This document shows positions 5,212 through 21,672 of a DNA stretch of 64,000 nt, in pieces (the first letter of the stretch is position 1; each line of letters opens with the position of its first letter). Where the stretch lies: assembly GCF_054482525.1 (NCBI RefSeq), contig NZ_CM137006.1. One strand, written 5' to 3'. The position numbers were made by a program, and so were the translations under genes. The notes below the pieces were generated by a model. That model had not been told where the DNA came from and searched no databases. It was given only the letters and a program-made list of their open reading frames with translations.

Positions 5212-5239
5212 GTATGACGATTTTAAGTATTCGTCATAC
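5212..5239 (-). promoter_or_regulatory. NikR operator in the nikA promoter (GTATGA-N16-TCATAC)
   Basis: Perfect inverted repeat GTATGA cgattttaagtattcg TCATAC about 40 bp upstream of the nikA start, matching the remembered NikR operator architecture. Confidence 0.7.
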
Positions 5240-5284: not shown

Positions 5285-5872
5285 TCAGTTAACTGAATCG
5301 ATCCATTGCACACTGTCGGCGGAGAGCGTAAAGGGGGTGGGAGTGCAGATCGCCAGGCTTAAATTATCAAGCTGGCAATGGCTGACCGACAGTGATGACT
5401 GATAGGTGCTGTCTACGCTGACGATTTGCCAGGCGCTGCCGCCACGTTGTTTAACGATGGCTTCTTTGCGTGTCCAGATGCGCCAGAACATTTCCAGTTG
5501 CTGATCAGGATGCACGGCGTCCATCTCAGCGTGTTCCCCGAGGCTGAACACCGCGTTCGCCAGCCAGCGCCAGTTGGCGCGCGGGCGAATCACTTCGATA
5601 TCGCAGCCGACTTCGCCTTCATCGCTCAACAGCAGGGCGATATCGTCACCGCTATGGCTTAAGTTGAACCATAGCGGCGTTTCCGGCGCGAATGCAGGTT
5701 TGCCTTGTTCGCCATAGATGATCTCCGGTAGCGGGGAAAGCGTGTGCGAAAGCAATGCACGCCCCGCCAGCCAGCGTTCGCGTCGTGGACCTTGCGGTGC
5801 TTGATCGCGTAAAGCCGGTGGCAGTGGAGCTGCGCTTAAGGTCGAAACTTTCCCCAGAACTATCCGATACAT
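5285..5872 (-). CDS. acpT: 4'-phosphopantetheinyl transferase AcpT (holo-ACP synthase family)
   Basis: ORF track gives 5285..5992; the likely true start is the internal ATG at 5872-5870 (MYRIVLGKVSTLSAAPLPP..., 195 aa). That start lies 1 nt after the stop of the upstream ketosynthase gene. Confidence 0.8.
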   Translation of the reverse strand: MYRIVLGKVSTLSAAPLPPALRDQAPQGPRRERWLAGRALLSHTLSPLPEIIYGEQGKPAFAPETPLWFNLSHSGDDIALLLSDEGEVGCDIEVIRPRANWRWLANAVFSLGEHAEMDAVHPDQQLEMFWRIWTRKEAIVKQRGGSAWQIVSVDSTYQSSLSVSHCQLDNLSLAICTPTPFTLSADSVQWIDSVN

Positions 5873-5873
5873 A

Positions 5874-7103
5874 TCAGGGCCAACGTTTAATGATGATGGA
5901 TGTATTAATGCCACCAAAGGCAAAGTTGTTACTCTGCAAAAACTCACAATCAACTTTGCGGGCTTCATGCATGATGTAATCCAGCGCGCCACAATTCGGG
6001 TCTGGTTTATTCAGGTTTAGCGTAGGCGCAAACCAACCTTCGCGCATCATTTGCAGACTCATCCAGGCTTCGAGCGCGCCACAGGCACCAAGCGTATGAC
6101 CAAAATAACTTTTCAGCGAGGAGAGCGGCACATTATCACCGTAAATGGTTGCTGTCGCCAGACTTTCTGCCATATCACCGCGATCGGTCGCCGTACCATG
6201 CGCTGAAATATAGCCGATATCTTGTGCGCTTAACCCGGCGATTTTCAGCGATTGCTCCATACAATACTGCATGGTTTCGCGCTGCGGCTGGGTAATATGT
6301 GCCGCGTCGCAGTTAGTCGCAAAGCCGACGATTTCACCGTAAATGGTCGCGCCGCGCGCTTTGGCGTGCTCCAGTTCTTCGAGAATGAGCGTACCTGCGC
6401 CTTCACCAATCACCAGCCCGTCGCGGTTTTCATCGAACGGTGAAGGTGTGGTTTTCGGCGCATCATTGTGCTGGCTGGTGGCGAAAAGCGTATCAAATAC
6501 CGCTGCTTCTGAAGGGCATAACTCTTCGGCACCACCAGCAACCATCACCGTTTGATAACCGTGGCGAATGGCTTCCCACGCATAACCGATTGCCTGGCTG
6601 CCGGAGGTACAGGCGCTGGAGGTTGGAATCACCCGCCCGCGCAGGCCGAAAAAGAGGCCAGTATTAACGGCGGTGGTGTGTGGCATCATCTGCACATAGG
6701 TGGTGCCAGTGATGTTGTTCGTGTGCTTTTCCGTCAGCATGGTGGCGAACTCGCTCACCGGGCCGGTACTGCCGGTCGATGAACCGTACGCAATGCCCGT
6801 TTCGCCGCTGGTTAATATCGGATCGCCAATCAACCCTGCCTGCTCTAATGCCAGCTCTGTCGCACGGGTCGACATTTGCGACACGCGGCCCATCGCACGG
6901 ATACGCTTGCGGGTGTAATGCTCCGGCAGCGTAAAATCATCAACAGGCGCGCCAAGCAGGGTGTGCAGACCATCGTAGACCTGCCACTCCGGCATTTTGC
7001 GCACTGCATTCTCATACGCCAGCAGACGCGCGGAAACGTCCTGCCAGTTTTCACCAAAGGCAGTCACGCCGCCCATTCCTGTAATCACTACGCGACGTGT
7101 CAT
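5874..7103 (-). CDS. Beta-ketoacyl-ACP synthase (KS) with Cys-His-His active site; by gene order apeR-like
   Basis: 409 aa ORF with active-site Cys in SSACTSG and His motifs SAHGTATDRGD and FGHTLGACG; FabB/FabF fold. Confidence 0.85.
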   Translation of the reverse strand: MTRRVVITGMGGVTAFGENWQDVSARLLAYENAVRKMPEWQVYDGLHTLLGAPVDDFTLPEHYTRKRIRAMGRVSQMSTRATELALEQAGLIGDPILTSGETGIAYGSSTGSTGPVSEFATMLTEKHTNNITGTTYVQMMPHTTAVNTGLFFGLRGRVIPTSSACTSGSQAIGYAWEAIRHGYQTVMVAGGAEELCPSEAAVFDTLFATSQHNDAPKTTPSPFDENRDGLVIGEGAGTLILEELEHAKARGATIYGEIVGFATNCDAAHITQPQRETMQYCMEQSLKIAGLSAQDIGYISAHGTATDRGDMAESLATATIYGDNVPLSSLKSYFGHTLGACGALEAWMSLQMMREGWFAPTLNLNKPDPNCGALDYIMHEARKVDCEFLQSNNFAFGGINTSIIIKRWP

Positions 7104-7831
7104 AACATCCCTCCGTTGATGGAAATAACCTGGCGGGTGACGTAACCCGCAATATCAGACATTAAATAGCTGGCAAGCCCGGCAACTTCTTCCGCCTGGC
7201 CCATGCGTTTCATGGGGATCATCGACATTGCCTCTTTCAGAGCGCTCTCTTCCATTTCGATCATCCCGGTATCAATAAGCCCCGGCGCGATGCAGTTGAC
7301 GGTGATTTTGCGCTTCGCGAGTTCGATAGCCAGTGCTTTTGTTGCGCCGATAATTCCGGCTTTGGCAGCGCTGTAGTTCACCTGTCCGCGATTGCCCATC
7401 ACGCCGGAAACCGAGGACAGCGTGATGATTCGTCCACCCTGGCGTGCGCCGATCATCGGCATAATGCACGGCTGAATGACGTTGTAGAAACTGTCGAGGT
7501 TGGTGTGGATCACCGCATCCCAGTCGTCATCGCTTAAAGCCGGAAAAGCGGCATCGCGGGCGATCCCGGCGTTACTAACCACGCCGTACCAGGCACCGTG
7601 TTGCGCGATCTCGTGCTCCAGCACTTCCCGACACTGTTCGCGGTTTGCGACGTCGAAACTGAGCAAACGCCCGTTACCACCGTTAGCGACAATGGCATTC
7701 AGCGTTTCCTGAGCGCCTGCGGCGTCACGGTGATAGTGAACGCCAATGTTAAAACCGTCTGCCGCCAATTGGCAGGCGATGGCGCGACCAATGCCTTTGC
7801 TGGCACCAGTAACCAGAACTGAACGACTCAT
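7100..7831 (-). CDS. 3-oxoacyl-ACP reductase, FabG-like SDR (KR); apeQ-like
   Basis: 243 aa ORF with N-terminal TGASKGIGRAIA Rossmann motif and SDR catalytic region (YSAAKAG). Confidence 0.85.
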   Translation of the reverse strand: MSRSVLVTGASKGIGRAIACQLAADGFNIGVHYHRDAAGAQETLNAIVANGGNGRLLSFDVANREQCREVLEHEIAQHGAWYGVVSNAGIARDAAFPALSDDDWDAVIHTNLDSFYNVIQPCIMPMIGARQGGRIITLSSVSGVMGNRGQVNYSAAKAGIIGATKALAIELAKRKITVNCIAPGLIDTGMIEMEESALKEAMSMIPMKRMGQAEEVAGLASYLMSDIAGYVTRQVISINGGML

Positions 7832-8295
7832 CAGGACGCTCCTTGTTGAAACAGGGTGGTAAGTTCTTCCGCGGTCGGCTGGAAGGTGTTAATGCGGCCC
7901 GTTGCTTCGCCGTCGTTGATACTGCACTCAAAACTGCCGAAGCGATCGTCTTGCATCAGGAGTTTGACGGTAATGGTCAGCGTCTGGCCTGCGGGCAGAA
8001 TGCCAGCGGCGCAAAGCAATTCACGTGCGCCCAGTACCATCCCTAACTCAATACTGTTTTTGCCCTGCTGGTGGCGATGCCAGCCAGACCAGACGCCGAC
8101 GGTTTGCGCCATCAATTCAAGGGCAAACCAGCCAGGGAGATTGCCGTCCGGGTCGAGAAACGGTGCCAGTACGCCACTGGGCGAAACCGTCACGCGGCAC
8201 ACCGCGCTGTCATCGCTGACGCTCACCACGTCTTCCAGCAGTAACATGGGCGCGTCGTGGGGCAGATAAGCGCCGGGGGATAAATAGTGGCTCAC
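7831..8295 (-). CDS. Hotdog-fold dehydratase (DH); apeP-like
   Basis: 154 aa ORF, tightly coupled between the KR and KS genes; size and position fit a FabA/FabZ-like hotdog dehydratase. Confidence 0.7.
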   Translation of the reverse strand: MSHYLSPGAYLPHDAPMLLLEDVVSVSDDSAVCRVTVSPSGVLAPFLDPDGNLPGWFALELMAQTVGVWSGWHRHQQGKNSIELGMVLGARELLCAAGILPAGQTLTITVKLLMQDDRFGSFECSINDGEATGRINTFQPTAEELTTLFQQGAS

Positions 8296-9470
8296 GAAAC
8301 CCTCCCGAGCAGAATGCTGGCGTTATTGCCGCCAAAGGCGAAGGAATTGGACAGGATCACCGGACGTGCCAGCGGCTGTGGTTGTTCGATAATGCCGCAC
8401 GGTGGCAGCGTGGGATCGCGCGGCGACAGGCTGAAGTCCTGAGCGAGCAGCGGTAAATCACGCTGTAAAATCAACATGCTGATTGCCGCCTCGGTAATGC
8501 CCGCCGCGCCCAGCGTGTGTCCGGTCAAATGTTTGGTGGAACTGCAAGGTACGCGTTCGCCAAACAGGGCGTTAACCACCATCGATTCAATCTGGTCGTT
8601 GAGTTGTGTGGCGGTACCGTGCAGGTTGATATAGCCGACGTCATCTGGCGTAAGCTGCGCATCGGTCAGCGCCTGGTTAATGGCGCGGATCGCCCCTTCG
8701 CCCTGCGGATGCGGGGCCGAAATATGGTAAGCGTCGCTCGATTCACCAACGCCCAGTAACGCGATGGGCTGCGGTTCACGGGTTAATAACATCAGTCCCG
8801 CCCCTTCGCCAATGGTGATACCTGCGCGGTCACGACCAAACGGCTGACATAAGGTGGGCGAGAGCGATTCGAGGCTGTGAAAACCGTTAATCGGCATCCG
8901 GCTCAGAGTATCTGCGCCACCCACAATGGCGGCATCGACCAGCCCCGCTTCGATAAGCCTGCGCCCGCTGATCATCGCTCTGGCGCTGGAAGAGCAAGCG
9001 GTTGAAAGGGTATAAGCCGGGCCATCGAGCGCCAGCCAGTGGCTGAGAAAGCGCGACGGATCGCCAAGTTCCTGTTGCGCGTAGTGCCATGTGGTGCTCG
9101 GCTGTCCGTTGGTGCGCAGGTTAACGTGCGTGTCGCCCTCATGCAGGCCGGAGGTGCTGGTGCCAAGTACAATCGCGATGCGCTCGTGACCATATTTCGC
9201 GATAGCGTCATCAACCTGCGGCTGGATCTGCGCCAGCGCCGCCAGCAGGATCTGATTGTTGCGCGAGCGGTGCGCAGCGAATTTTTCGGGGATAAGCGGA
9301 AGCTCGCCATCCACGCCAGCCAGGACCGCCTGCGGATGCCCCTGCAACCAGCCTGCGCGCGGACGCATGCCGGGAGCGACACCGCGAGTCAGGTTGGCTG
9401 CGATCTCATCAAGGTTATTTCCCAGGGCGTTGATCATGCCGACGGCGGAAATATAAATCATATCAGTCAC
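8292..9470 (-). CDS. Beta-ketoacyl-ACP synthase (KS); apeO-like
   Basis: 392 aa ORF with TACSSSARAM (active Cys), LHGTATQLND and TGHTLGAAG His motifs. Confidence 0.85.
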   Translation of the reverse strand: MTDMIYISAVGMINALGNNLDEIAANLTRGVAPGMRPRAGWLQGHPQAVLAGVDGELPLIPEKFAAHRSRNNQILLAALAQIQPQVDDAIAKYGHERIAIVLGTSTSGLHEGDTHVNLRTNGQPSTTWHYAQQELGDPSRFLSHWLALDGPAYTLSTACSSSARAMISGRRLIEAGLVDAAIVGGADTLSRMPINGFHSLESLSPTLCQPFGRDRAGITIGEGAGLMLLTREPQPIALLGVGESSDAYHISAPHPQGEGAIRAINQALTDAQLTPDDVGYINLHGTATQLNDQIESMVVNALFGERVPCSSTKHLTGHTLGAAGITEAAISMLILQRDLPLLAQDFSLSPRDPTLPPCGIIEQPQPLARPVILSNSFAFGGNNASILLGRVS

Positions 9471-10047
9471 CTAAGTATTGAATGGTGATGTGGTATTTAA
9501 AGACATGCTGCTCAATGCTGATTGGCACGCGTTTGCCCTTGCGATTCAAATAGGTGATTTCCGTGACCAGCTTGCCGCTGGCGTTACGCAGCTCGCGTTT
9601 GTCACCGTTGTCGCGAAGTGTCCAGCCAGTGGGAAGTTGCGGCTGCCAGGCGCTAATCGGCCAGTGGCTGAGCATCACGTCAGCCAGTACCTGACTTGCG
9701 GGCGGTAACTGTGGGACGACGATCGATTGCTCGGCGCGTAGCCCTTGCGCATCGTAGGTCACCAGAAACAGGCGAATGCCGACCGACGACAGTCCGGCAA
9801 GGGTGATTTTCTGGTCGTCGGCGTTAAGCATCACTAGCAGCGACTGGGTTTTGCCGTTGAAGCTGCCGGTCAACAGTTGCTGGGAATTGACGGCGGGTGA
9901 AATCCCCGGCGCAGGCAGCGTGATGCGCGTGCCAGGTTGCAGCCACGCTTGCGGGCGGCCTTCCTGTTCTGGTTGCGAGTGGCTACAGCCGGTGAGGATA
10001 AGCGTAGCGGTCAGGGCGAACGCTCGCCAGAATGTGGGTTTGATCAT
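9463..10047 (-). CDS. Lipoprotein of unknown function, DUF3261-like; apeN-like
   Basis: 194 aa ORF with signal peptide and lipobox LTGC; overlaps neighbouring genes at both ends. Confidence 0.7.
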   Translation of the reverse strand: MIKPTFWRAFALTATLILTGCSHSQPEQEGRPQAWLQPGTRITLPAPGISPAVNSQQLLTGSFNGKTQSLLVMLNADDQKITLAGLSSVGIRLFLVTYDAQGLRAEQSIVVPQLPPASQVLADVMLSHWPISAWQPQLPTGWTLRDNGDKRELRNASGKLVTEITYLNRKGKRVPISIEQHVFKYHITIQYLGD

Positions 10048-12362
10048 TTTTTTGTTCTCTTTTTATCGGGCATGGCCAGCGGCGAAAGCAGGAAGGCGGT
10101 GAAAATACCGCTCACCAGCACAATGCCAAAACTGCTGATGGCCTGGGTGGCGCTGAATACCAGCATTCCCAGCGTCAGCAAGGTGGTGAGCATTGCCAGC
10201 GTGATCGCCAGTAGCGAAGTTAATGGTGTGCCGCGCGGATTACTGAAAAACAGCGTGTAGTTGATGCCGATGCCAAGCACCAGTACCAGCGCCAGCAGCG
10301 AAAAGAGATTCACCGCCTGCCCGCTCATCGCCAGCACCGCCAGACCGCAGCCCAGTGAAAGCACCGAAGGCACCAGGCTGATAAACCCTTTGCGCCAGCC
10401 GAGGCGGGCCACTGCGCCGCAGGCAATTACTGCCAGCGCCACCAGCAACAAGCCGGTTAACACATAACGGTAAAGTGCGAACAATTCATCAAAGGTGTTT
10501 TTGCGATCAACCCAGGCAATGCCACAAGGGTAATAGCTGGAGATTTCCTGTAGCGCCGCGCTATTTTTAACCCCTTCAACCGGCACCAGCACGCCGCTTG
10601 CGCCATTTTCCAGCGTCAGCCACAGCAGACGCCAGCCTTCACTGGCGGGGCTTGCCAGCCATTCATCAACCTTCACTGGCATGGCGTTAAGATCCGGGTT
10701 CACCGCCGTCAGCCCGGCATTTTGCAGTGCTTTTGTTACCGTCGGGGCAGCCGTTTTCAGCAGGTCTAAATCTTCCTCCTGCCGCGCCAGGGAGTTCAGC
10801 GGAATGGTGCGGTAGTTGCTGATAAGGCCGTCTTTTTTCGCTTTCTCCAGCGAGGTGGTAAATGTCTCCAGCCGTCCCAAGGTTTGCTGTGACGAATCGC
10901 CGTAAACCACAAACCATTTTTGATCGACGCTTTGTCCGGTCAGGGCGGTGATGGCTTTCTCCTGCGCCAGAATATGCTGCGGTAGCGCCTGTAACTGCGA
11001 GATATCGTCATCGACGCACAGCATTGACATCCCCGCCAGCGAAAACAGCGCCAGCGCGACGGGCAGACCCCGCGACAGTTTTTTATTACGCCGCCACGCT
11101 GCCAGCCAGCGCAGCATCAGCGCCATCGCTGGAACCGGACGCACCGGCAGGCCACGGCACAGCCACGGATGCCAGAACAGGACGGTCAGACAGGAGGCGC
11201 TCAACCCGACGGCGGCAAAAATCGCCATCTGGCGAATGCCGGGGAAGGGGGCGAGCATCATAATCAGATACGCCGCCACGGTGGTGAGCAGCGCCAGCAG
11301 CAGGGCATTGCGCACTTTCGCCAGGCTTTGCCACGGCGAAACGTCATTGCCGTGCACCATCCGCTCGGTGAGGTAATAGAGCGTGTAGTCAGCGGAAATG
11401 CCGATAACGCTCATGCTCATCACCAGCGTCATCAGGTGTAATTCGCCGAAAATCAACAAGGTGGCGACCGTTCCCGCCAGCGCGCCGATGCCGATGGAAA
11501 TCACACACATCAGCAACGGGCGCAAAGAGCGGAACACCGCCACAATCAGCAATATCACCCCCAGCAGCGTTGCCACGCCCAGGGTGGAGATATCCTGCTT
11601 CGCCTGTTGGCTGGCGTAATCGCTGTAAAACACCGTGCCGCGTGAGAGCAACTGAGCCTGCGGGTAACGCGTTTTCAGATCCTTTTCCAGCGTATTCAGG
11701 GTCGTGATGAGCTGGTGGGTTTGCTGCATATCAAACGACGATCCCGCCAGTTCGCCGTGCAGCAGATACCAGTAGTTGCCCTGGGGATCCTGCGTCACCA
11801 GCCAGCCGTCCATCAGCCGCAAACGCTGGCCGTTTTTCGCCATCGCCAGCTGCGAGCCACGCATTAACATCAGCGGATCGTTTTGCAGCTCCTTACCGCT
11901 TACCCCGGAGAACGCAGAATAAAGCTGGGAGAGGATCCACTGCGCCTGCGCTTCGCCGCCGTTTTGCAGGCGCGCGCGGGTGTCGGGGTCAATCAGACCG
12001 TTGCGATGCTGCCAGAAAAACGCTCCCCACGCCTGCTGGCTGGCGGCATCCATTGGCCCTTTAACGTCGCCGAGCGCAGCGGATTTTTGCAGCAGCGTCA
12101 GCCACTCCTGAGCGACCCTGGGATTAGCCTCTTTACCGGGGCTGACCAGCCACACCAGTTGGCGGTCCAGACGCTGCATAAAGCCGTCATTCAGCGCTGG
12201 GGGAATATCGCCCATCGCCTGTTTGGGTAACATAGCCAGTACGCTACTGTTCAGTCGTGATTGCGGCAACAGGATCAGCAACGCCGCCGCCATGACCAGG
12301 CAGACGATCCCCCATAACAGCGCCGGGCGTTTACTGGGCGGCAAAACGTTGGCGTTCGTCAT
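10044..12362 (-). CDS. MMPL/RND-superfamily membrane exporter; apeM-like
   Basis: 772 aa ORF with two blocks of transmembrane helices separated by soluble domains, typical of MMPL lipid exporters. Confidence 0.8.
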   Translation of the reverse strand: MTNANVLPPSKRPALLWGIVCLVMAAALLILLPQSRLNSSVLAMLPKQAMGDIPPALNDGFMQRLDRQLVWLVSPGKEANPRVAQEWLTLLQKSAALGDVKGPMDAASQQAWGAFFWQHRNGLIDPDTRARLQNGGEAQAQWILSQLYSAFSGVSGKELQNDPLMLMRGSQLAMAKNGQRLRLMDGWLVTQDPQGNYWYLLHGELAGSSFDMQQTHQLITTLNTLEKDLKTRYPQAQLLSRGTVFYSDYASQQAKQDISTLGVATLLGVILLIVAVFRSLRPLLMCVISIGIGALAGTVATLLIFGELHLMTLVMSMSVIGISADYTLYYLTERMVHGNDVSPWQSLAKVRNALLLALLTTVAAYLIMMLAPFPGIRQMAIFAAVGLSASCLTVLFWHPWLCRGLPVRPVPAMALMLRWLAAWRRNKKLSRGLPVALALFSLAGMSMLCVDDDISQLQALPQHILAQEKAITALTGQSVDQKWFVVYGDSSQQTLGRLETFTTSLEKAKKDGLISNYRTIPLNSLARQEEDLDLLKTAAPTVTKALQNAGLTAVNPDLNAMPVKVDEWLASPASEGWRLLWLTLENGASGVLVPVEGVKNSAALQEISSYYPCGIAWVDRKNTFDELFALYRYVLTGLLLVALAVIACGAVARLGWRKGFISLVPSVLSLGCGLAVLAMSGQAVNLFSLLALVLVLGIGINYTLFFSNPRGTPLTSLLAITLAMLTTLLTLGMLVFSATQAISSFGIVLVSGIFTAFLLSPLAMPDKKRTKK

Positions 12363-12936
12363 CGGTCAGTTGCGCTGGCGTCAGTTGATGTTGGGTAAGA
12401 GCGATATCGGTGCGATCGCCCTGTTTATCATTAAGCTGAATGCTCTCCAGATAGGTTTGCCCGGCGAGATCGATGGTGTTGAAAATTTTATCCAGCGGCG
12501 TGGTGGTCGGCGTCAGGCGCAGTGTCCAGCGGCCTTCGCCTTTGTCAGCAAATTCGACGCGGAAGTTTTGTTCCAGCACTTTGCGATCGGCCTGGAACAG
12601 CGCGCGCAGCAGGTGGTTAAACTGGAACATCTGCGGGTTATTTTCTGCCGTGATAATTTGCGGCGGCTGACCGTTGATCACCTGCACCATGCGTTTATCG
12701 TCCAGCAATAGTTGCATGGGGAACGGTGAGGTTTGATCCCACAACAGCCCCTGGTCGCGGGCGATCAACATCTGGCCCTGAGATCGTAGCGGCTGCGGCA
12801 GATCTTTAATCGTCCGGGTTTGATCGAAATGGGCGCGGATCACTGGCTGTTCGGTAAAGCGTTGCTGAAGATCGTCCAGGTTCAGGGCGCTCACAAACGG
12901 GCTAATCAGCAGCGCCAGCAGCGGTAAAAATTTCAT
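12331..12936 (-). CDS. LolA-like outer-membrane lipoprotein carrier protein; apeL-like
   Basis: 201 aa ORF with signal peptide (MKFLPLLALLISPFVSA); size and composition fit the LolA/LolB fold. Confidence 0.7.
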   Translation of the reverse strand: MKFLPLLALLISPFVSALNLDDLQQRFTEQPVIRAHFDQTRTIKDLPQPLRSQGQMLIARDQGLLWDQTSPFPMQLLLDDKRMVQVINGQPPQIITAENNPQMFQFNHLLRALFQADRKVLEQNFRVEFADKGEGRWTLRLTPTTTPLDKIFNTIDLAGQTYLESIQLNDKQGDRTDIALTQHQLTPAQLTDDERQRFAAQ

Positions 12937-13355
12937 GGTTTGACTCCCATGCGTTCAAACAGAATATCGGGGCTGACAAAGCACAGTTCGCGGCTTTGCT
13001 CGTCGACCGCGACCTGAATGGTGTATCCGGTGGTGGCGCGTTTTCCCGTTTCGGCATCGAAAATCTGATAGCCAATCCGCAGACGGTTTTCGAACTCTTC
13101 GATATGCGCACGCACGCGGATGCGTTGCTCAAAGGTGAGGGCGTGGCGATATTTCACCCTCGCATCGACCACTGGCCACAAATAACCGGACTCTTTCATC
13201 TGCCGATAGCCGTAATTGAACTGGTTGAGCAGCGCCTCGCGGGCCACTTCAAAGTAGCGAAAATAGTTACCGTGCCAGGCCACGCCCATCATATCGACGT
13301 CGTGAAAGGGAATGGTCAGCTCGACTTCAGCGGTAAATCGGGGATCGTTAAGCAC
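12933..13355 (-). CDS. Acyl-CoA/acyl-ACP thioesterase, 4HBT/YbgC hotdog family; apeK-like
   Basis: 140 aa ORF with the N-terminal ...ELTIPFHDVDMMGVAWHGNYFRYFE... motif typical of 4HBT-type thioesterases. Confidence 0.75.
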   Translation of the reverse strand: MLNDPRFTAEVELTIPFHDVDMMGVAWHGNYFRYFEVAREALLNQFNYGYRQMKESGYLWPVVDARVKYRHALTFEQRIRVRAHIEEFENRLRIGYQIFDAETGKRATTGYTIQVAVDEQSRELCFVSPDILFERMGVKP

Positions 13356-13358
13356 CCT

Positions 13359-15035
13359 TTACTCCTTGTCCTGGACTTCCGGCAGTTGCCAGAAATCGAA
13401 AAAATTAAACCAGTCGAGGGGGGACTGGAGCGCGTAATATTCCAGACGCGCGGCGTAATGATCGATAGCGTTTTGCAGCGCCTGCTGGCGTTCGCCACGC
13501 GGCAACAGCAGCGGGTCGGCAAAGGTTTCGCAGTGAATATGCAGCTTGCCGTGCTGGCGCAGCGCGAAAATCAGATTCACCGGGCAGCGCAAAATAGACG
13601 CAAGAATAAACGGCCCCTGCGGGAAGGGCGCAGGCTGGCCCATAAACGGACTCCAGCAGACTCGCCAGTCGCCGCCGCGTTGCGGGTTGACGGCGATGCG
13701 GTCACCGACAATCGCCACCCATTCGCCGTTATCCAGCTTCTCTTTGAGCAGGATGGCGGTTTCTGGGCCGATATCCGTCACCGGGAGCAGGTTGATGCCT
13801 GCCTGCGGGGCCATCTCCTGCATTATCTGTTTAAAGCGTTGGGCGTTTTCGCTAAACACCAGCGCGTTAATGGTTTTGTAGCCCTGAATTTTTGCCAGCG
13901 CCCGGCACACTTCCACATCGCCAAGATGCGAGGCCAGCAGCAATTTGCCGCGCGGATCGCTGACGTTAAGTGCCGCTTCTGCGCCTGGTGCAAACAGCAC
14001 ATCACGCCCGAGTTGCAGCTCGCCGCGCCAGCTGGCGATTTTGTCGAGCATGGCGTTGCCGAAACGTAGAAAGTGCTGATAGCTGTTGATTTTTGCTGCC
14101 AGTGGTTGTTGTTGGCGCACACGGGCGAGCCAGGCTTGCGACGCTTTACGCGCACGAGCAGCGGTGAGCCAGTAGACGCCCACCACCGGGTAAAGCAGCG
14201 CGGTAAACGCAGTTCTTCCCAGCAGACGCCAGACCAGCAGCATCAGGCGCATTCCCCATAATCCTTTCACTTCGCTCTGCCGCGCCCAGTGGCTGGAAGA
14301 GCTGCGCATCAGCAGTGAAGGAATACGCGGCAACATGCCGAAAAACAGACGTGTGTGCATGAGCGAGATGCGGACGTTATCTTTCAGGGCATCAAAATGC
14401 GAAAGCCCGTCCAGTGGATAGGTGACGCGGGTCGGCACGAAATAGCTGGTGTTTCCCTGCCAGTAGAGGCGCACCATCACTTCAGTGTCGAAATCCATCC
14501 GCTTGCCGATGGTGGCGTATTTTGCCAGTTGCAGCGTTGGCGCAACCGGATAAACGCGAAAGCCGCACATGCTGTCTTTCAGTTGCAGGGAGAGCGTTTC
14601 GATCCATACCCAGACGTGGGTGACCCAGCGCCCGTACAGCCGTGAGCGGGGGATGGAGTCATCGTAAATCGGCTGGCCGGAGATCAGCGCCGCAGGCTGC
14701 TGTTCAGCGAGTGCCAGCAGTTTAGGGATGTCTTCAATCGCGTGCTGACCGTCAGCATCCACCTGTACCGCATGGCTGAAGCCCGCGTCTGCCGCCGCCT
14801 GTAAGCCGCGCATTACCGCCGCGCCTTTGCCTGCGTTTTCTGCCAGGCGAATTAAGGTCACGCCAGGCTGTTCGGCAACCAGATTATCCAGTTGCTGTTG
14901 CGTGGCGGCATCGCTGCCGTCATCCACCACAATACAGGGCAGATTAAATGGCTTAAGACGCGCCAGCACGCCCGGCATCATCGCACCGTGGTTGTAGCAG
15001 GGGATCAACACACAGGGAGAAAAGTTTACCGACAT
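13359..15035 (-). CDS. Two-domain protein: family 2 glycosyltransferase (N-terminal) fused to a lipid-A-type acyltransferase domain (C-terminal); apeJ-like
   Basis: 558 aa ORF; N-terminus CVLIPCYNHG...VVDDGSDA...VDADGQH is the GT2 signature (DxD-type); C-terminal half resembles LpxL/HtrB-like acyltransferases. Confidence 0.7.
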   Translation of the reverse strand: MSVNFSPCVLIPCYNHGAMMPGVLARLKPFNLPCIVVDDGSDAATQQQLDNLVAEQPGVTLIRLAENAGKGAAVMRGLQAAADAGFSHAVQVDADGQHAIEDIPKLLALAEQQPAALISGQPIYDDSIPRSRLYGRWVTHVWVWIETLSLQLKDSMCGFRVYPVAPTLQLAKYATIGKRMDFDTEVMVRLYWQGNTSYFVPTRVTYPLDGLSHFDALKDNVRISLMHTRLFFGMLPRIPSLLMRSSSSHWARQSEVKGLWGMRLMLLVWRLLGRTAFTALLYPVVGVYWLTAARARKASQAWLARVRQQQPLAAKINSYQHFLRFGNAMLDKIASWRGELQLGRDVLFAPGAEAALNVSDPRGKLLLASHLGDVEVCRALAKIQGYKTINALVFSENAQRFKQIMQEMAPQAGINLLPVTDIGPETAILLKEKLDNGEWVAIVGDRIAVNPQRGGDWRVCWSPFMGQPAPFPQGPFILASILRCPVNLIFALRQHGKLHIHCETFADPLLLPRGERQQALQNAIDHYAARLEYYALQSPLDWFNFFDFWQLPEVQDKE

Positions 15036-15409
15036 AGGCGGATCTTCCCGCTACTGGCGGTGTGGCGGGCGTCACCGTCGTGACGCTGATAGCTAAAGCT
15101 CAGAATCTGGCGTTCTTCCTGCCAGTTAAGCGTGAGCGTGACGCGGTTTTCCGGCAGCAACGGGGACTGGAATTTGATGTTCTGAATAGAGTGAAAACGC
15201 CAGCCAGGCGCGAGCAGGGCAAGCGCGTAGCTCATCGCCCAGTCGATTTGTGCAACTCCTGGAAGTAACGGCTGCACGGCAAAATGACCGCGAAACCAGA
15301 ACAGATCCGCCCTGAGATGCAGAACAATTTCAAGGTGATTCGCTTGTGCCTGATGGCGCTCGATTTCATGGGGCTTCATGAAATAACTCCTGTAATTGCG
15401 CATAGACAC
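15026..15409 (-). CDS. Hotdog-fold dehydratase, FabA/FabZ-like (DH); apeI-like
   Basis: 127 aa ORF (true start possibly the internal Met at about 15379); small hotdog protein overlapping both neighbours. Confidence 0.6.
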   Translation of the reverse strand: MSMRNYRSYFMKPHEIERHQAQANHLEIVLHLRADLFWFRGHFAVQPLLPGVAQIDWAMSYALALLAPGWRFHSIQNIKFQSPLLPENRVTLTLNWQEERQILSFSYQRHDGDARHTASSGKIRLCR

Positions 15410-16766
15410 GCTTGTTCATACTGTTTACTGGCATTTCATCAATAACGCGCCAGTAACGCGGAATAGCAACTGGCTCCAGGGTCGGGCGCAGTAATCGCCG
15501 CCAGGTCATTTCCTGGCTATGCCCGCCGCCGTTCTGCCATTGCAGATGAGCTTCGTCATCCAGCACCAGCAAAACGCCGATGCTCTGACGCCCGCCGCGC
15601 GTAACGGGAACTGCCGCCGCCTCGCGAATGCCGTCCAGCGCCAGCAGACGTTGTTCTACTTCCTGGAGTGAAATACGTTTTTCTTCAATCTTAACGATGC
15701 GCCCACGACGCCCCATCAGATGGAACTGACCGTCCTGGCTAAACTGCAAGAGATCGTCGAGCAACAGGCCGTTATCTTCCGCTATCAGCGGTGAAAAGAG
15801 GCGAAATGCTTCACCTTCGACCTGGAAGTGCATACCTGGAAAGGGCCGCCAGCGGCGTTGCTCTTGTTCGCGGTAACGCCAGGCAATGACGCCGGTTTCC
15901 GTGCTGCCGAAGATTTCATCAGGCCAGACGCGCAGCCAGCTCTCGGTATATTGTACGTCCTGCCACGGCAGCTCACCGCCAGCAGAGAGAAGCACCTGAA
16001 CAGGCGGCGGGGATAGCTGAGCATCCAGACGCTTCAAAAATGCCGGGCTGCTGATGAAGATATAGCGATGCTGGTGACTCAATGCGGCAAACTGTTCGAC
16101 ATACCAGAGCATGGCGGCGTGCAGCGGTAATCCCAGCGCCATTGGCAGGAAAACGCGAAAAGTCAGGCCGTACAAATGCTGCGGCAAAACGGAACCGACG
16201 ACACGACATCCGGCAAGACGTGCGCCTAATCGTTCAGCCAGCAGTTCTGCTTCACGGTCCAGCAAATGAACAGGCTTAATTACCCGCTTTGGCTGCCCCG
16301 TAGAACCGGAGGTAAACAGCTCGATATAAGCGTCTGGCGCTATAGCGGCAAAGGTGAATGATTGTGTCGCGACTTGTGGGGAACTTGCTACCAACAGCAA
16401 TGAACCTTGCCAGTTAAGTTCGCTGTCGCTAAGTACACCATCGAACAGTTCACGTTGCTCATTAAGCTGGATGACACGGTTATGCCCCGGAAGCACCGGC
16501 GTTTTTCCGGCGTGTAGCGTGGCGAGCAGGGCAACGATAAATAGATAGCTGTTCTCAAAGCACAGCGCCCAGCGTTCACCCGGCTGTTGCTGCAAGCGGC
16601 AGATAAGTTGCGCGACATCGTGACGCAAATCGCCCAGTGTCCACGAGCTTTCGTCCAGCCACGCAATGGGCGTGTCATCAGGGCGTGGCGCAGTCAGCCA
16701 GCGTGCAAGCGGTAAGGTCTGCTTCATGAGCGATCTCTTTTTATCACCTGACGGCGCACCAGCCAT
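15366..16766 (-). CDS. AMP-dependent ligase (acyl-ACP/CoA synthetase-like adenylating enzyme); apeH-like
   Basis: 466 aa ORF with AMP-binding core motif TSGSTGQPKRV; the start may be the internal Met (MKQTLPL...) at about 16727. Confidence 0.8.
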   Translation of the reverse strand: MAGAPSGDKKRSLMKQTLPLARWLTAPRPDDTPIAWLDESSWTLGDLRHDVAQLICRLQQQPGERWALCFENSYLFIVALLATLHAGKTPVLPGHNRVIQLNEQRELFDGVLSDSELNWQGSLLLVASSPQVATQSFTFAAIAPDAYIELFTSGSTGQPKRVIKPVHLLDREAELLAERLGARLAGCRVVGSVLPQHLYGLTFRVFLPMALGLPLHAAMLWYVEQFAALSHQHRYIFISSPAFLKRLDAQLSPPPVQVLLSAGGELPWQDVQYTESWLRVWPDEIFGSTETGVIAWRYREQEQRRWRPFPGMHFQVEGEAFRLFSPLIAEDNGLLLDDLLQFSQDGQFHLMGRRGRIVKIEEKRISLQEVEQRLLALDGIREAAAVPVTRGGRQSIGVLLVLDDEAHLQWQNGGGHSQEMTWRRLLRPTLEPVAIPRYWRVIDEMPVNSMNKRVYAQLQELFHEAP

Positions 16767-17305
16767 TCACCTGCCATTAACGTTCCCATCAACAAATAAG
16801 CAATCATGCCGTTCCAGGCGGTCCATAACGACATATCGCCATAAAGCGCGGTAAAGAGGGCAATTCCGCCGTTAATGATGAAAAAGCCGCACCAGATTTG
16901 CGTGACACGGCGGGTATAGCGCACGCCCTTTTCCGGGAGGTCTGGCTCCTGCAAACGTGCCAGCCGCTCAACTATCGGCATTGTCGACCACAGCGAACCG
17001 CCAAAAACCGCCAGCATGATCGCGTTAACCACTACCGGGTAAAACAGCAGTAGCTGGTGCGTTTTCAACAGAAAGCTGGCGACACACAATGCGATGCCCA
17101 CGACAGCGACGATTTGTGTGACGGCTTGTAGCGGCCCCGCCCGGCGACGGGTCTGGCGCAGGCGCAACAAAAGCAGCAACGCTATTAGCGGCAACAACCA
17201 GTGCAGGCCGTTATGCGCCAGGCCAAACCAAATCACAAACGGCCAGGCGAGCAGCAATAATCCAGTCAGCAGCTTAATCATCGGTAGCGAGCGAATGCCC
17301 GACAT
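16724..17305 (-). CDS. Small integral membrane protein of unknown function; apeG-like
   Basis: 193 aa ORF with several hydrophobic helices; coding-dense position inside the cluster. Confidence 0.6.
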   Translation of the reverse strand: MSGIRSLPMIKLLTGLLLLAWPFVIWFGLAHNGLHWLLPLIALLLLLRLRQTRRRAGPLQAVTQIVAVVGIALCVASFLLKTHQLLLFYPVVVNAIMLAVFGGSLWSTMPIVERLARLQEPDLPEKGVRYTRRVTQIWCGFFIINGGIALFTALYGDMSLWTAWNGMIAYLLMGTLMAGEWLVRRQVIKRDRS

Positions 17306-17309
17306 CAGA

Positions 17310-17561
17310 TCAGGCTTCTTGTAGCAGGCGTTCTACAGCCTCTACGACATCCTGAACTGTGCGCACTGCTTTAAACTCTTCCGGCTTGATTTTCTTACCG
17401 GTTTTCTTTTGCAGGTGCACAATCATGTCAACGGCGTCGATGCTGTCCAGTTCCAGATCTTCGTACAGGCGCGCTTCAGGTTTGATGTCCTGCGGATCGA
17501 TTTCAAACAGCTTAACCAGCAGGGCTGAGACTTCCTGATAGACGGTTTGTTGTTCTGTCAT
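17310..17561 (-). CDS. Acyl carrier protein; apeF-like
   Basis: 83 aa acidic ORF with the phosphopantetheine attachment motif LELDSIDAVDMI. Confidence 0.85.
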   Translation of the reverse strand: MTEQQTVYQEVSALLVKLFEIDPQDIKPEARLYEDLELDSIDAVDMIVHLQKKTGKKIKPEEFKAVRTVQDVVEAVERLLQEA

Positions 17562-17572: not shown

Positions 17573-17830
17573 TCAGGCACGTTGCGCAGCAATGAAAGAG
17601 GCCAGAGTGGCGACGGAGAAAAAGTGCTGACGCATCTCTTCACTTTCCGCAGAAAGTACAACGCCATATTGATTTTTCACTGCCAGCCCCAGTTCCAGGG
17701 CATCGATGGAATCCAGTCCTAAACCGTCGCCGAACAGCGGCGCATCGGTCTCGATATCATCAGGAGTCAACTCGTCCAGATTGAGGGTACTGATGATGAG
17801 GTTTTTAATTTCCAGATAAAGCGCTTGCAT
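17573..17830 (-). CDS. Acyl carrier protein; apeE-like
   Basis: 85 aa ORF with LGLDSIDALELG attachment motif; tandem with the second ACP gene. Confidence 0.85.
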   Translation of the reverse strand: MQALYLEIKNLIISTLNLDELTPDDIETDAPLFGDGLGLDSIDALELGLAVKNQYGVVLSAESEEMRQHFFSVATLASFIAAQRA

Positions 17831-18644
17831 TATTTATTCCTGAGAGAGGTAAACAACCTTGTTGTAATTGAAGCAAAAGATGCCGGTTTAACTGCCTTGC
17901 TGCCAGCGCCGGTTCTTGTGAAGTTGCATCGTAAAATTTATTGATTTCAACCCGACCATGGACTTCAACCGTAAAAAACGGCCGGTCAGGTGGAACGTCA
18001 TACCATTTACTTTGTTTATCCAGCAGATGCTCGCTACAGCCGATCGTCACGATGCGTAAATCGCTGGCACAGCGCACGGCAATATTCGCCGCCCCGCGCT
18101 GCAGCGTCATTTTTTCACCGGGCTTCGTTCGCGTGCCTTCGGGGAAAATCAGGATAGTGTCACCCTGTGCCAGTCGCTGTTGGCAGCGGGGTAACAGGGT
18201 TTCAGCTTCGCTGTTGATTAAATAATCTGCCGCCCGCACGACGCCGCCAAGAAAAGGATTTTTTAACAGCGCGCTTTTCACCAGGCAGTCAGTTTCTGGC
18301 ATGACTGACGCCAGCAGCACGTAATCGATCAGCGTGGGATGATTGGCTACGACGAGGCAACCGCGTTCCTGACGTAAAATTTCAGCGCCATCAATACGAT
18401 AATCCAGCACGCCAAGCCCTTTCGCGACAGTTAAAAACAGGCGAAAACTGGCGGCAATGCTGCGACGCGCCAAACGACGGCGGCGGGAAGTATCCCACAC
18501 CAAAACTAACAATATGTTAAACCACACGACAGAAAGCAGCAGGCCGCCGAGACCAAACAGGGCAAAACATAACCCGGTCATGACCAGTCGCCAGGTCCAC
18601 TCCAGACGTGACATCAGCTTACTCATCTGCGGCTCCAGCGCCAT
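17805..18644 (-). CDS. Lysophospholipid (PlsC-type) acyltransferase; apeD-like
   Basis: 279 aa ORF with N-terminal transmembrane segment and H(X)4D-type motif NHPTLID; likely start at the Met giving an ATGA overlap with the upstream stop near 18626. Confidence 0.75.
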   Translation of the reverse strand: MALEPQMSKLMSRLEWTWRLVMTGLCFALFGLGGLLLSVVWFNILLVLVWDTSRRRRLARRSIAASFRLFLTVAKGLGVLDYRIDGAEILRQERGCLVVANHPTLIDYVLLASVMPETDCLVKSALLKNPFLGGVVRAADYLINSEAETLLPRCQQRLAQGDTILIFPEGTRTKPGEKMTLQRGAANIAVRCASDLRIVTIGCSEHLLDKQSKWYDVPPDRPFFTVEVHGRVEINKFYDATSQEPALAARQLNRHLLLQLQQGCLPLSGINNASALSGN

Positions 18645-19345
18645 TGCACGCGCTCGCCAGGCAGTGAAAATGCGTCTGCATTTTGTAAATAGTGCTGTAA
18701 AAACAACATGCTTTGCGGCAGTGATGTTTCATTGCCCGCAATGGCTGACTGCGTTTCACATTGCCAGTCATCGCCAGCTTCAATCACCAGCGCGACGGCG
18801 TACGGCCAGGTCGGCATTTCTGATGGCAGTTGTGGGTGATAAAACTCAGGCAGAAAGCCATCAAAATCGACCATCAGCACGCGCTGGTATCCCGCTTGTA
18901 ACAGGCTAAGCACTTCACACAAACCTTGCTGGAAAGTGTCGCGACCAGCAGAAAGCGATGACGAAACGATCGGCTGTTTGGCCGCAATGGTCAGGTTACC
19001 CACGGAAGAGTTGTGTACGGAGAGCGCGAAGTCGGTCGGAGAAAGCGCCTGTTCAGTTGCCAGTGCATGAACAATGCGGTAATTGCGCTCCAGTTCGCCA
19101 TGACGACTGGTATACAAAACGGCGTCTGGCTGATGGCGGCGTAGCATTGCCAGACCGCATTCAACAGCCAGTTTGCTGCCTGAACTAAGGCGGCGGGCGG
19201 TCATCATTGGCAGTTCACTTAATTTTGCCAACGGCGCGGCAGGGTCAATCGCCCACGGCTGGCGCGACCATGCTTGCCATTGCTGCGCTTCGCTAAGTCC
19301 AGGCGCCAGTGCCTGCCAGTCGGTAATATTTAATGTAAATTTCAT
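18623..19345 (-). CDS. Beta-ketoacyl synthase N-terminal-domain protein lacking the catalytic Cys (chain-length-factor-like); apeC-like
   Basis: ORF track gives 18623..19369 (248 aa); probable start MKFTLNITDW at about 19345. About half the size of a full KS with no active-site Cys motif recognisable. Confidence 0.6.
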   Translation of the reverse strand: MKFTLNITDWQALAPGLSEAQQWQAWSRQPWAIDPAAPLAKLSELPMMTARRLSSGSKLAVECGLAMLRRHQPDAVLYTSRHGELERNYRIVHALATEQALSPTDFALSVHNSSVGNLTIAAKQPIVSSSLSAGRDTFQQGLCEVLSLLQAGYQRVLMVDFDGFLPEFYHPQLPSEMPTWPYAVALVIEAGDDWQCETQSAIAGNETSLPQSMLFLQHYLQNADAFSLPGERVQWRWSRR

Positions 19346-19385
19346 CAACGCGCGCCCGCGGTAAACCAAAATTATTAAGTGACGA

Positions 19386-20453: not shown

Positions 20454-20512
20454 AACCTGTTAAGAGGGAATTAAATTATTATCGGACCGCAGCGGCCCGA
20501 CTTTAGGAAGAA

Positions 20513-20902
20513 TTATAAATCTGCGCCCGCTGACAAATTCAGTTGAATATCTTTGTCGAGATTGCGGACCCAGCGATTGTAGTTTTTATGAATTTGTCCG
20601 CCTGACGCTTGTAGGTTCTGGCTATTTTCATAATTGATATCGTAGCTGGATGCCGTGTAGTTAATGCGAATTTCGGCTGAATGATCGCGTGACTGTTGAC
20701 GTGCTTTAATTACGCCTTGTCCGGCTTCGGACATAATCCATTTGCGTTCAACGCCAGCTTTCAGAATCGCTTTTTTCACTTGTTCCTGGGTATGACCAGC
20801 GCTGACGGTTGAGTGAACCTGATCAATTGGCGCAGTACGCGCGCAACCCGCTAAAGCACCCACAACAGCAATAGCCGCAAACCATTTCATGTAATGTCTC
20901 AT
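20513..20902 (-). CDS. Small lipoprotein of unknown function; first gene of the cluster
   Basis: 129 aa ORF with signal peptide and lipobox LAGC; its start codon lies inside the IS1 target duplication. True start may be the second Met (MKWFAA...). Confidence 0.6.
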   Translation of the reverse strand: MRHYMKWFAAIAVVGALAGCARTAPIDQVHSTVSAGHTQEQVKKAILKAGVERKWIMSEAGQGVIKARQQSRDHSAEIRINYTASSYDINYENSQNLQASGGQIHKNYNRWVRNLDKDIQLNLSAGADL

Positions 20903-20904: not shown

Positions 20905-20919
20905 GGTAATGACTCCAAC

Positions 20920-21617: not shown

Positions 21618-21672
21618 TGGAGCACCTCAAAAACACCATCATACACTAAATCAGTAAGTTGGCAGCATCACC

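Follow-up and report, generated by a model that had tools for sequence, protein, structure and literature searches.

In Enterobacteriaceae, the gene acpT is very probably the 19th and last biosynthetic cistron, in effect, of the aryl-polyene (APE) operon ape. It would be transcribed and translated together with the preceding gene apeR, would encode the 4′-phosphopantetheinyl transferase (PPTase) for the carrier proteins ApeE and ApeF, and would have been orphaned by deletions of the cluster. This reading is built on the anatomy of the locus, its conservation, the enzyme family of AcpT, and the relics that deletions have left behind. The relation between AcpT and the carrier proteins is already known, having been published in 2006. 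According to De Lay and Cronan (2006, Mol Microbiol 61:232), as cited in PMC8253772 and PMC4103896, AcpT modifies the two carrier proteins of O-island 138 of E. coli O157:H7 in vitro, and K-12 acpT lost its substrates through a genome rearrangement. To this extent, the finding restates published biology, in which AcpT acts on both carrier proteins of the neighbouring O157:H7/UPEC cluster, a cluster that K-12 has lost. What is new here is the conservation of the junction across genera, the multiplicity of deletion breakpoints, and the analysis of selection.

The window (the whole 64,000-nt stretch of DNA analysed, from contig NZ_CM137006.1) comes from E. coli, and the ketosynthase gene preceding acpT is apeR, the last gene of the 18-gene APE cluster apeA–apeR. 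In O157:H7, this cluster is known as O-island 138. As the initial annotation had noted, the acpT start codon follows the ketosynthase stop codon at a distance of one nucleotide on the minus strand: the TGA occupies 5874–5876, the spacer base (T on that strand) 5873, and the ATG 5870–5872, so that the junction reads AAA CGT TGG CCC TGA T ATG TAT CGG. Strain PCN033, which served as the reference for RefSeq annotation (100% match over 5100–7200), is annotated with the identical two coding sequences, apeR and acpT, separated by one base, and the O157-like strain 06-3462 has the same 1-nt arrangement. The acpT stop codon lies at 5285–5287. An upstream in-frame start, GTG at 5992, which would give an ORF of 235 aa, was rejected because the AcpT model spans exactly residues 1–195, and because cluster-free strains, including K-12, have an in-frame TGA 45 nt upstream of the ATG with no start codon between them. 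On these sequence grounds, the ATG at 5872 is taken as the true start. The features of the locus are collected in Table 1.

Table 1. Features of the ape–acpT locus and its flanks, in coordinates of the window.
Feature	Position	Strand	Basis and remarks
GTATGA-N16-TCATAC palindrome between acpT and nikA	5212..5239	.	sequence; fold z = −2.18
acpT, Sfp-type (group II) 4′-phosphopantetheinyl transferase, 195 aa	5285..5872	-	ORF, translation, NF007676, PF01648
apeR stop/acpT start junction TGA-T-ATG	5870..5876	-	direct reading; RefSeq CDS ends agree
SD-less acpT leader (last 6 codons of apeR plus stop, 20 nt)	5873..5892	-	retained in cluster-free E. coli including K-12
apeR, terminal beta-ketoacyl-ACP synthase of the aryl-polyene cluster, 409 aa	5874..7103	-	NF006587, 778 bits; RefSeq
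apeQ, FabG2 ketoreductase	7100..7831	-	NCBIfam (TIGR01831/NF006618 matches across apeQ–apeO), RefSeq CDS
apeP, dehydratase	7831..8295	-	NCBIfam, RefSeq CDS
apeO, ketosynthase	8292..9461	-	NCBIfam, RefSeq CDS
apeN to apeG (DUF3261 protein, MMPL exporter, LolA-like, thioesterase, GT2 glycosyltransferase, FabZ-like dehydratase, AMP-binding ApeH, hypothetical protein)	9463..17305	-	profile matches and RefSeq; all junctions overlap or ≤4 nt
apeF, acyl carrier protein, 83 aa, serine motif LELDSIDAVD, presumed AcpT substrate	17310..17561	-	NF003757, 146 bits; translation
apeE, phosphopantetheine-binding carrier protein, 85 aa, motif LGLDSIDALE, presumed AcpT substrate	17573..17830	-	NF006617, 91 bits; translation
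apeD acyltransferase, apeC chain-length factor, apeB FlxJ-family methyltransferase, apeA lipoprotein; cluster start	17805..20890	-	profiles, RefSeq
IS1 element, 768 bp, 9-bp target duplication TAATGAGAC	20905..21672	-	sequence, IS1 transposase match
Terminator-like hairpin followed by a T-rich tract, closely behind the yhhT stop	22009..22039	-	fold, 9-bp stem, z = −1.86
yhhT, conserved upstream flank	22059..23108	-	RefSeq, locus comparison

The cluster in the window has a type II FAS/PKS-like core, comprising two ACPs, KS/CLF, ketoreductase, two dehydratases, an aryl-activating AMP-ligase, and a thioesterase (NCBIfam, RefSeq). The attachment and export set is also present (LolA-like, MMPL, and DUF3261 proteins, acyltransferase, and GT2), along with a methyltransferase of the FlxJ type, and Pfam gave ApeP-like matches in orthologous loci. 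Judged by profile and by the DSID serine motif in their translations, ApeE and ApeF are genuine ACPs. From apeC through acpT, all genes lie on a single strand with junctions that overlap or do not exceed 11 nt (apeQ, apeP, and apeO overlap by 1–4 nt), and the spacing between apeR and acpT is as close as that of any pair of genes within the cluster. The IS1 element lies in front of apeA, 14 nt from its ATG, and is missing from the PCN033 RefSeq record, giving a 777-bp coordinate offset versus L001.

The adjacency of apeR and acpT was followed across 80 Enterobacteriaceae species and 5426 complete E. coli genomes. In the species survey, the upstream neighbour of acpT is always either apeR, at a gap of 1–3 nt, or yhhT, from which the remains of a decayed apeR tail separate it. 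An apeR-derived frame ends just before the acpT ATG in 58 of the 80 species: the gap is 1 nt in 23, 2 nt in 31, and 3 nt in 3, while in the remaining one it is 8 nt and the apeR frame is a decayed relic. The 57 species with a gap of 1–3 nt represent more than 12 genera, and Cronobacter shows this spacing as well. Within E. coli, the junction occurs in 569 of the 5426 genomes, and acpT itself is present in 5425. Chance does not account for the arrangement. No PPTase follows the terminal ketosynthase in Pantoea or in three APE-like clusters that are more distant.

The idea that K-12 acpT is orphaned from its cognate ACPs, also put forward in the initial annotation, is borne out by the locus itself: in K-12, acpT is still preceded by the final 20 nt of apeR with their stop codon, and hence the K-12 state arose by deletion. 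Homology of the window to cluster-free genomes stops at position 5892, the retained stretch is seen in the W150 and MG1655 sequences, and, overall, the apeR tails before acpT in cluster-free genomes range from 20 nt to 190 codons, with several different breakpoints. The yhhT stop lies 51–104 nt before acpT in these genomes, and the hairpin that follows yhhT in the window is gone from the leaders of cluster-free strains. Deletions of apeA to apeR would have given rise to cluster-free strains such as K-12, sparing acpT with at least 20 nt of the apeR end and leaving it at this distance behind the co-oriented yhhT. In K-12, a filler of 34 nt separates yhhT from the apeR relic; it matches nothing in the window and occurs only in cluster-free loci of Escherichia. 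The K-12 leader also contains a mini-ORF of 18 codons, whose ATG overlaps the yhhT TGA and whose stop is that of the apeR relic, 1 nt before acpT. It was considered as a coupling chain and rejected, since it is not conserved (L006 and Citrobacter have no ATG or no frame), and from its distribution it is probably fortuitous.

The dS values of ape genes between E. coli and Citrobacter (0.85–1.3) are on par with those of the flanking nikA and yhhT, indicating that the cluster is an old resident and not a recent insert; a recent horizontal import into E. coli was rejected on this basis. The same data bear on a quite different reading of the locus, in which acpT belongs to the backbone and has a transcript of its own, and the cluster is an island (O-island 138) that was acquired horizontally and inserted immediately upstream of it by chance. 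The cluster is indeed classed as a strain-specific island in O157:H7, and no more than about 10% of E. coli genomes have it; its GC content (about 0.55–0.60) is somewhat above that on the yhhT side (0.47–0.50), and the APE literature treats it as a cluster without a PPTase. However, an insertion cannot produce the apeR 3′ remnants lying between yhhT and acpT, which extend from 20 nt up to ApeR residues 218–408. Aside from these relics, which strongly disfavour a chance insertion, the recurrence of the same locus with its 1–3 nt junction in more than 12 genera, the agreement of ape dS with that of flanking core genes, a 1-nt gap too small for a promoter, and the lack of a conserved element within apeR all make such an origin highly improbable.

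A promoter or terminator separating apeR from acpT would have spoken against a common transcript, and neither a sigma-70-like nor a terminator-like site was found on the minus strand from 7133 to 5285. A consensus scan of the whole of 5285–10101 on this strand likewise gave no sigma-70-like match, although weak or non-sigma-70 promoters can escape such a scan. Nor are the final 40 codons of apeR unusually conserved at synonymous sites (0.50–0.58 versus a gene mean of 0.56 ± 0.06). Given neither a consensus match nor a synonymous-conservation peak, a promoter embedded in apeR was set aside as improbable. This is relevant to the proposal that acpT is co-transcribed with the cluster but, in addition, has a constitutive promoter inside apeR that makes AcpT available when the ape operon is silent. 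Any cluster-independent role of AcpT would need expression with the ape promoter off, and in the window acpT is intact although IS1 separates the native upstream region from apeA. Aside from the two negative results just described, such a promoter would have to be dispensable in cluster-free genomes that keep only 20–35 nt of apeR, and the proposal is regarded as improbable.

Co-expression with apeR, the preferred reading, is also suggested by the translation signals of acpT. Its Shine–Dalgarno (SD) sequence is almost absent: the anti-SD duplex energy is −1.5 kcal/mol, as compared with −8 to −11 for apeR, apeQ, and apeP, which places acpT among the weakest of 20 genes checked. The combination of UGA-U-AUG with a weak SD has the geometry expected for termination–reinitiation. 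No RNA structure gating the acpT start was found at the junction (fold z = 0.05), so that coupling would rest solely on this geometry and on the missing SD. With neither a recognisable promoter nor a ribosome-binding site, acpT would most likely be transcribed together with apeR, and ribosomes ending at the apeR UGA may re-initiate one base further on, at acpT, which would give a small, cluster-linked supply of the enzyme. AcpT would then convert apo-ApeE and apo-ApeF to the holo form, and the polyene chain would be built on both. From the spacing, the negative scans, and the missing SD we infer co-transcription and translational coupling of acpT with apeR, both being well supported. At the same time, acpT remains conserved in cluster-free E. 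coli, where the same SD-less leader lacks a conserved upstream ORF; thus, it can be expressed without apeR translation. SD strength in cluster-free and cluster-bearing species does not differ significantly (Mann–Whitney p = 0.13), and acpT is not among the genes listed in the TosR RNA-seq paper and supplements to it.

The view of acpT as the terminal gene of the cluster transcript stands only in part. The 1-nt packing onto apeR on the same strand agrees with it, but there is no clear terminator between acpT and the nik promoter region, which leaves acpT a candidate for the last gene of the transcript. The sole stable hairpin 3′ of acpT is formed by the palindrome listed in Table 1, presumably a NikR-operator-type site of the nik promoter.

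The enzyme itself matches the NCBIfam AcpT equivalog NF007676 over its full length (394.6 bits against a cut-off of 174, residues 1–195 of 195), and the Pfam domain PF01648 (ACPS/4′-PPTase superfamily) covers residues 88–164. Alignment with Sfp pairs H73 with H90, D91 with D107, E93 with E109, K136 with K150, E137 with E151, and K141 with K155; the Mg-binding D-x-E motif is G-C-D91-I-E93, and the W-x-x-K-E-x-x-x-K motif is W133-T-R-K136-E137-A-I-V-K141. D76, also considered as a catalytic residue, was rejected since the Sfp alignment shows no known ligand there. By this alignment, AcpT is an Sfp-type PPTase with every Mg/CoA-binding residue. These six residues are invariant in 50 out of 50 cluster-bearing species, and the catalytic residues are kept in 26 of 28 cluster-free ones, the only changes being D91S and H73Q in two related species, a difference that is not significant (Fisher p = 0.13). 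After cluster loss, an apparent shift of constraint is seen at a few sites, with recurrent A79V and R98H/Q and an occasional loss of the Mg-binding Asp91.

AcpT had been proposed as the dedicated PPTase of the two cluster ACPs. With respect to the substrates, this agrees with the published in vitro modification of the O157:H7 homologues, by analogy with which ApeE and ApeF are presumed to be AcpT substrates here. It does not hold in the sense of an only role, for acpT stays under purifying selection without the cluster. The gene is intact in about 27 cluster-free species, and its dN/dS is about 0.07 (0.065–0.08) among cluster-free pairs and 0.09–0.16 in cluster-bearing groups, all values being pairwise and without phylogenetic correction. 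The cluster-free pairs include the C. freundii complex (21 pairs, dS 0.24–0.90), whose members share one deletion junction, so that the cluster was lost before the complex split. Strong purifying selection has thus persisted long after cluster loss, and "dedicated" probably does not mean "sole function".

This raises the modest question of why Salmonella, the C. freundii complex, and most E. coli have retained an intact and constrained "orphan" PPTase. A second, APE-independent and possibly non-catalytic function that maintains strong purifying selection after cluster loss is a possibility to be taken seriously, though short of an even chance; a candidate is envelope/LPS homeostasis via YejM/LapC–LpxC. 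If it exists, it would explain how several independent 15-kb deletions of the cluster came to spare acpT together with its SD-less leader. It is a step further, and rather unlikely, that the main selected role of AcpT is independent of the APE cluster, be it through a second substrate or through a non-catalytic envelope/LPS role via YejM(LapC)/LpxC. In that case, the place of acpT at the end of the ape operon would bring additional, cluster-linked amounts of an enzyme that is kept anyway, which is compatible with the main explanation. Such a role would account for the near-universal presence of acpT in E. coli as against a junction in 569 genomes, for its integrity in cluster-free species, and for the lower dN/dS there. 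D91S (equivalent to Sfp D107) occurs in two cluster-free Enterobacter species, between which dN/dS is still 0.13. Overexpression of acpT is, moreover, reported to suppress yejM/lapC truncations and to stabilise LpxC, reportedly without enzymatic activity (PMC10607373, PMC7773988). On the other hand, these suppression phenotypes are weak and come from overexpression, no AcpT substrate is known in K-12, the dN/dS values have the limits given above, and ApeE/F-like proteins could sit elsewhere in cluster-free genomes outside E. coli. Retention of the catalytic residues in 26 of 28 cluster-free species also suggests that catalysis is still important.

For the APE field, the place of acpT at the end of the ape operon is of practical value. 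In the literature, the boundary of the cluster is drawn at apeR, and a dedicated PPTase is said to be absent (PMC8253772), whereas the operon of Enterobacteriaceae has a PPTase gene physically fused to its 3′ end. The heterologous proof that all genes of the cluster are required was obtained in a K-12 host, where acpT is supplied from the chromosome. Therefore, acpT should accompany the APE cluster into non-enterobacterial hosts or in vitro reconstitution.

The 18 genes at 5874–20890 have the same order and functions as the APE cluster of E. coli CFT073 (the carrier proteins ApeE/F, the ApeH ligase, the ApeC/O/R ketosynthases, the reductase ApeQ, the dehydratases ApeI/P, and the LolA/MMPL/DUF3261 genes for export). 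Xenorhabdus, Vibrio, and the flexirubin type provide the other APE clusters compared (Cimermancic 2014; Johnston 2021, PMC8253772). With AcpT (YhhU) and O-island 138 of O157:H7, the gene, the cluster, and the two carrier proteins are the same, and nothing essential differs. Some PPTase genes lie within or next to the pathway that needs them, as sfp does with srf, entD with ent, and pfaE with pfa, and acpT is like them in adjoining the genes for its carrier-protein substrates. Like the Sfp/EntD-type enzymes, AcpT is a single-domain-pair member of the Sfp family with conserved Mg and CoA ligands, but it is shorter (195 aa), and its relation to Sfp is only a distant one (E = 8e-9 over 91 residues). 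Unlike the genes of these enzymes, acpT has no ribosome-binding site of its own, its start codon abuts the stop of the preceding biosynthetic gene, and it outlasts the repeated loss of its pathway.

The minus strand of the window carries all the genes discussed here, and on it the end of the terminal ketosynthase gene apeR (the "last ketosynthase" of the initial annotation) and the beginning of acpT together read ATC ATT AAA CGT TGG CCC TGA T ATG TAT CGG ATA GTT. The initial annotation had placed the ketosynthase stop and the acpT ATG one nucleotide apart on one strand, and this is exactly what the sequence contains. The E. coli PCN033 chromosome is 100% identical over 5100-7200, its RefSeq annotation has the same two CDSs with one base between them, and the apeR-acpT layout of the O157-like strain 06-3462 is identical. 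GTG 5992, the upstream limit of the mechanical ORF, was ruled out as the acpT start by the curated AcpT model, which aligns over 1-195 of 195; it is also ruled out by cluster-free strains, with an in-frame TGA 45 nt upstream and no start codon between.

Features of the apeR-acpT region and apeR relics in other genomes
Feature	Position	Strand	Remark
acpT ORF, 195 aa	ATG 5870-5872, end 5285-5287	-	ORF and translation
Spacer base, single T	5873	-	read from sequence
apeR ketosynthase ORF, 409 aa	5874..7103	-	TGA stop 5874-5876
apeA-apeR, 18 genes	5874-20890	-	aryl-polyene cluster upstream of acpT; NCBIfam matches
ApeF carrier protein	17310-17561	-	motif LELDSIDAVD
ApeE carrier protein	17573-17830	-	motif LGLDSIDALE
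nikABCDE	110 nt downstream of acpT
Palindrome GTATGA-N16-TCATAC	5212-5239		between acpT and nikA, ahead of nikABCDE
IS1, complete, 768 bp	20905-21672		14 nt upstream of apeA ATG
IS1 target duplication	20896-20904, 21673-21681		TAATGAGAC
Terminator-like hairpin	22009-22039	-	9 bp, GC-rich, followed by TTGATTTG
AcpT codon 73	about 5654-5656
AcpT codon 79	about 5636-5638
AcpT codon 91	about 5600-5602
AcpT codon 98	about 5579-5581
Genome loci for residues 79/98/91/73			L011, L015, L021, L024, L060, L064, L075, L079, L082
apeR relic, two Enterobacter species	residues 367-408
apeR relic, a Leclercia and an Enterobacter MAG	residues about 360-409
apeR relic, E. asburiae strain	residues 218-408
Degenerate apeR tails, Citrobacter and Salmonella			about 30 nt

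NCBIfam matches in the cluster include a FlxJ-family methyltransferase, FabG2 (which also matches the flexirubin FlxB model), a LolA2-flexirubin-like protein, an MMPL exporter, three KS/CLF-type proteins, two FabZ-like dehydratases, an AMP-ligase, a thioesterase, an acyltransferase and a GT2. The finding that acpT belongs with this cluster is already known: the gene with its neighbours and substrates, and the deletion account for K-12, go back to De Lay & Cronan 2006 (cited in PMC8253772 and PMC4103896). The present analysis supports the interpretation of the initial annotation, with co-transcription and coupling as what we infer, and adds the finding that the 1-3 nt junction is conserved across genera, recurrent cluster deletions with apeR relics, and evidence of constraint on acpT without its cluster, which alone may be worth pursuing further.

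The comparison took one genome per species and covered 80 loci of Enterobacteriaceae that have an AcpT orthologue. The same-strand gene upstream of acpT is apeR or yhhT in all 80, and the gap between the apeR-derived frame and the acpT ATG is 1 nt in 23 species, 2 nt in 31 and 3 nt in three. The pattern recurs in Cronobacter, where apeR is followed at 2 nt by a PF01648 gene.

From apeC to acpT all junctions overlap or leave gaps of <=11 nt, and acpT is no more loosely packed than any gene pair inside the cluster. Consensus scans of the minus strand from 7133 to 5285 detected no sigma-70-like or terminator-like site. Synonymous-site conservation in the last 40 codons of apeR (0.50-0.58 in 49 species) is ordinary for the gene (mean 0.56 +/- 0.06), so that no conserved embedded element is visible in the apeR 3' end. 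Anti-SD pairing in the 18 nt upstream of the acpT ATG amounts to -1.5 kcal/mol versus -8 to -11 kcal/mol for apeR, apeQ and apeP, and no unusual RNA structure was seen on folding the junction. Taken together, the packing, the lack of a promoter or terminator match, the ordinary conservation and the weak SD point to co-transcription of acpT with the cluster and to its translation by termination-reinitiation at UGA-U-AUG. The position of acpT as the terminal gene of this transcript, also claimed initially, is less secure, because scanning and folding downstream found no canonical terminator. The only stable hairpin up to nikA is the palindrome, presumably a NikR-type nik operator; it has TTATTT after it and might serve as a weak terminator for transcripts from acpT.

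Next to apeA on its upstream side comes an IS1 copy, and beyond that yhhT. The PCN033 RefSeq record, identical in other respects, lacks the IS1; among 5426 complete E. coli genomes none has IS1 at the exact site, and three have it elsewhere in the yhhT-apeA intergenic region. The insertion may separate the cluster, together with acpT, from the native promoter. The terminator-like hairpin just 3' of the yhhT stop belongs to the cluster-bearing arrangement; cluster-free strains have deleted it, and its loss there would allow yhhT transcription into acpT.

The apeR-acpT junction is present in 569 of the 5426 genomes, and the acpT region is matched in 5425. In cluster-free genomes homology to the window ends 20 nt upstream of the acpT ATG. 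K-12 MG1655 reads yhhT-TGA, a 34-nt filler and CATTAAACGTTGGCCCTGAT-ATG; the last six codons and stop of apeR thus remain before acpT, which fits the idea that K-12 AcpT is orphaned from its cognate ACPs. At least four to five distinct deletion junction classes argue that the cluster has been lost by deletion several times, with acpT spared each time, and the apeR relics in cluster-free genomes exclude an insertion model. Since synonymous divergence between E. coli and Citrobacter is the same for ape genes (0.85-1.3) as for nikA and yhhT, the cluster is an old resident of the locus and not a recent island. The AcpT protein WP_000285784.1 is identical in a cluster-bearing and a cluster-free strain. 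In E. coli FDAARGOS_1058 (locus L083, NZ_CP065970.1, 3990-4001) the apeR TGA is followed immediately by unrelated pseudogene-rich DNA (garD region), and acpT is located elsewhere on the chromosome, so that a natural rearrangement breakpoint coincides with the exact apeR/acpT junction.

Cluster-free Escherichia, Citrobacter and Salmonella (loci L003-L027; 4416-4469 of the K-12 locus L092) have in common a homologous leader of 51-63 nt (ggcgacaagtgatac / gatgacaaatgatac / ggcgacagatgctac ... apeR tail). This implies a single, very old deletion allele; full clusters whose divergence is at backbone level are nonetheless still found in some E. coli and Citrobacter. In K-12 MG1655 (L092, 4411-4467) an 18-codon ORF, MRRQVIRYALSFSIKRWP, starts with an ATG overlapping the yhhT stop (GGATGA) and terminates with the stop of the apeR relic, 1 nt ahead of the acpT ATG. 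It could link yhhT to acpT by a chain of translational coupling, but is probably fortuitous because conservation is lacking in Escherichia sp. MOD1-EC7003 and in Citrobacter.

AcpT belongs to the Sfp-type PPTases: it matches PF01648 and aligns with B. subtilis Sfp (1QR0, E = 8e-9), where H73, D91, E93, K136/E137 and K141 correspond to H90, D107, E109, K150/E151 and K155, the Mg and CoA ligands of Sfp. The protein evolves much faster than its neighbours: between-genera identity is 59-84% for AcpT, 84-95% for ApeR and 83-92% for ApeQ, and the E. coli-Citrobacter comparison gives dN values of about 0.13 (acpT) and about 0.035 (apeR).

If AcpT served ApeE and ApeF only, it should decay after cluster loss, which is not seen. 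Orthologues are intact in 78 of 80 cases, the two short ones being in clusters or assemblies with other frameshifts, and Nei-Gojobori dN/dS (pairwise, with no tree correction) is 0.065-0.08 in cluster-free pairs versus 0.09-0.16 in cluster-bearing groups. Seven species of the C. freundii complex have one deletion junction in common and therefore diverged after the loss; their 21 pairs (dS 0.24-0.90) give omega = 0.065. There are also signs that the constraint changes. A79 and R98 are invariant in 50/50 cluster-bearing species, while A79 is replaced by V and R98 by H or Q in 10/28 cluster-free species of several lineages (Fisher p 1e-5, uncorrected and with kinship ignored). D91S, at an Mg ligand by the Sfp alignment, and H73Q are confined to two cluster-free, related Enterobacter species, which still give omega = 0.13 when compared with each other. 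At these four residues, sites of carrier-protein recognition or catalysis may have been freed from constraint once the cluster was lost, and the pattern would fit a cluster-tied catalytic role together with a second, cluster-independent one. One candidate from the literature is the suppression of yejM/lapC truncations and stabilisation of LpxC by acpT overexpression, for which enzymatic activity is reportedly not needed (PMC10607373, PMC7773988). The initial view of AcpT as dedicated to the two upstream ACPs agrees with the published substrates, but "dedicated" probably has to be qualified, as acpT is constrained without the cluster.

The gene order in the window is that of the CFT073 APE cluster, and the sufficiency of the 18 ape genes has been shown in Top10 (PMC8253772), a K-12 host that supplied chromosomal acpT. 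In Pantoea, apeR is followed after 165 nt by a TonB-dependent receptor, and three more distant APE-like clusters (ApeR identity 52-60%) have a terminal ketosynthase with no PPTase after it. Because the junction is kept within the Enterobacteriaceae and the link is gone outside the family, the apeR-acpT fusion is a family-level feature and not one of APE clusters generally.
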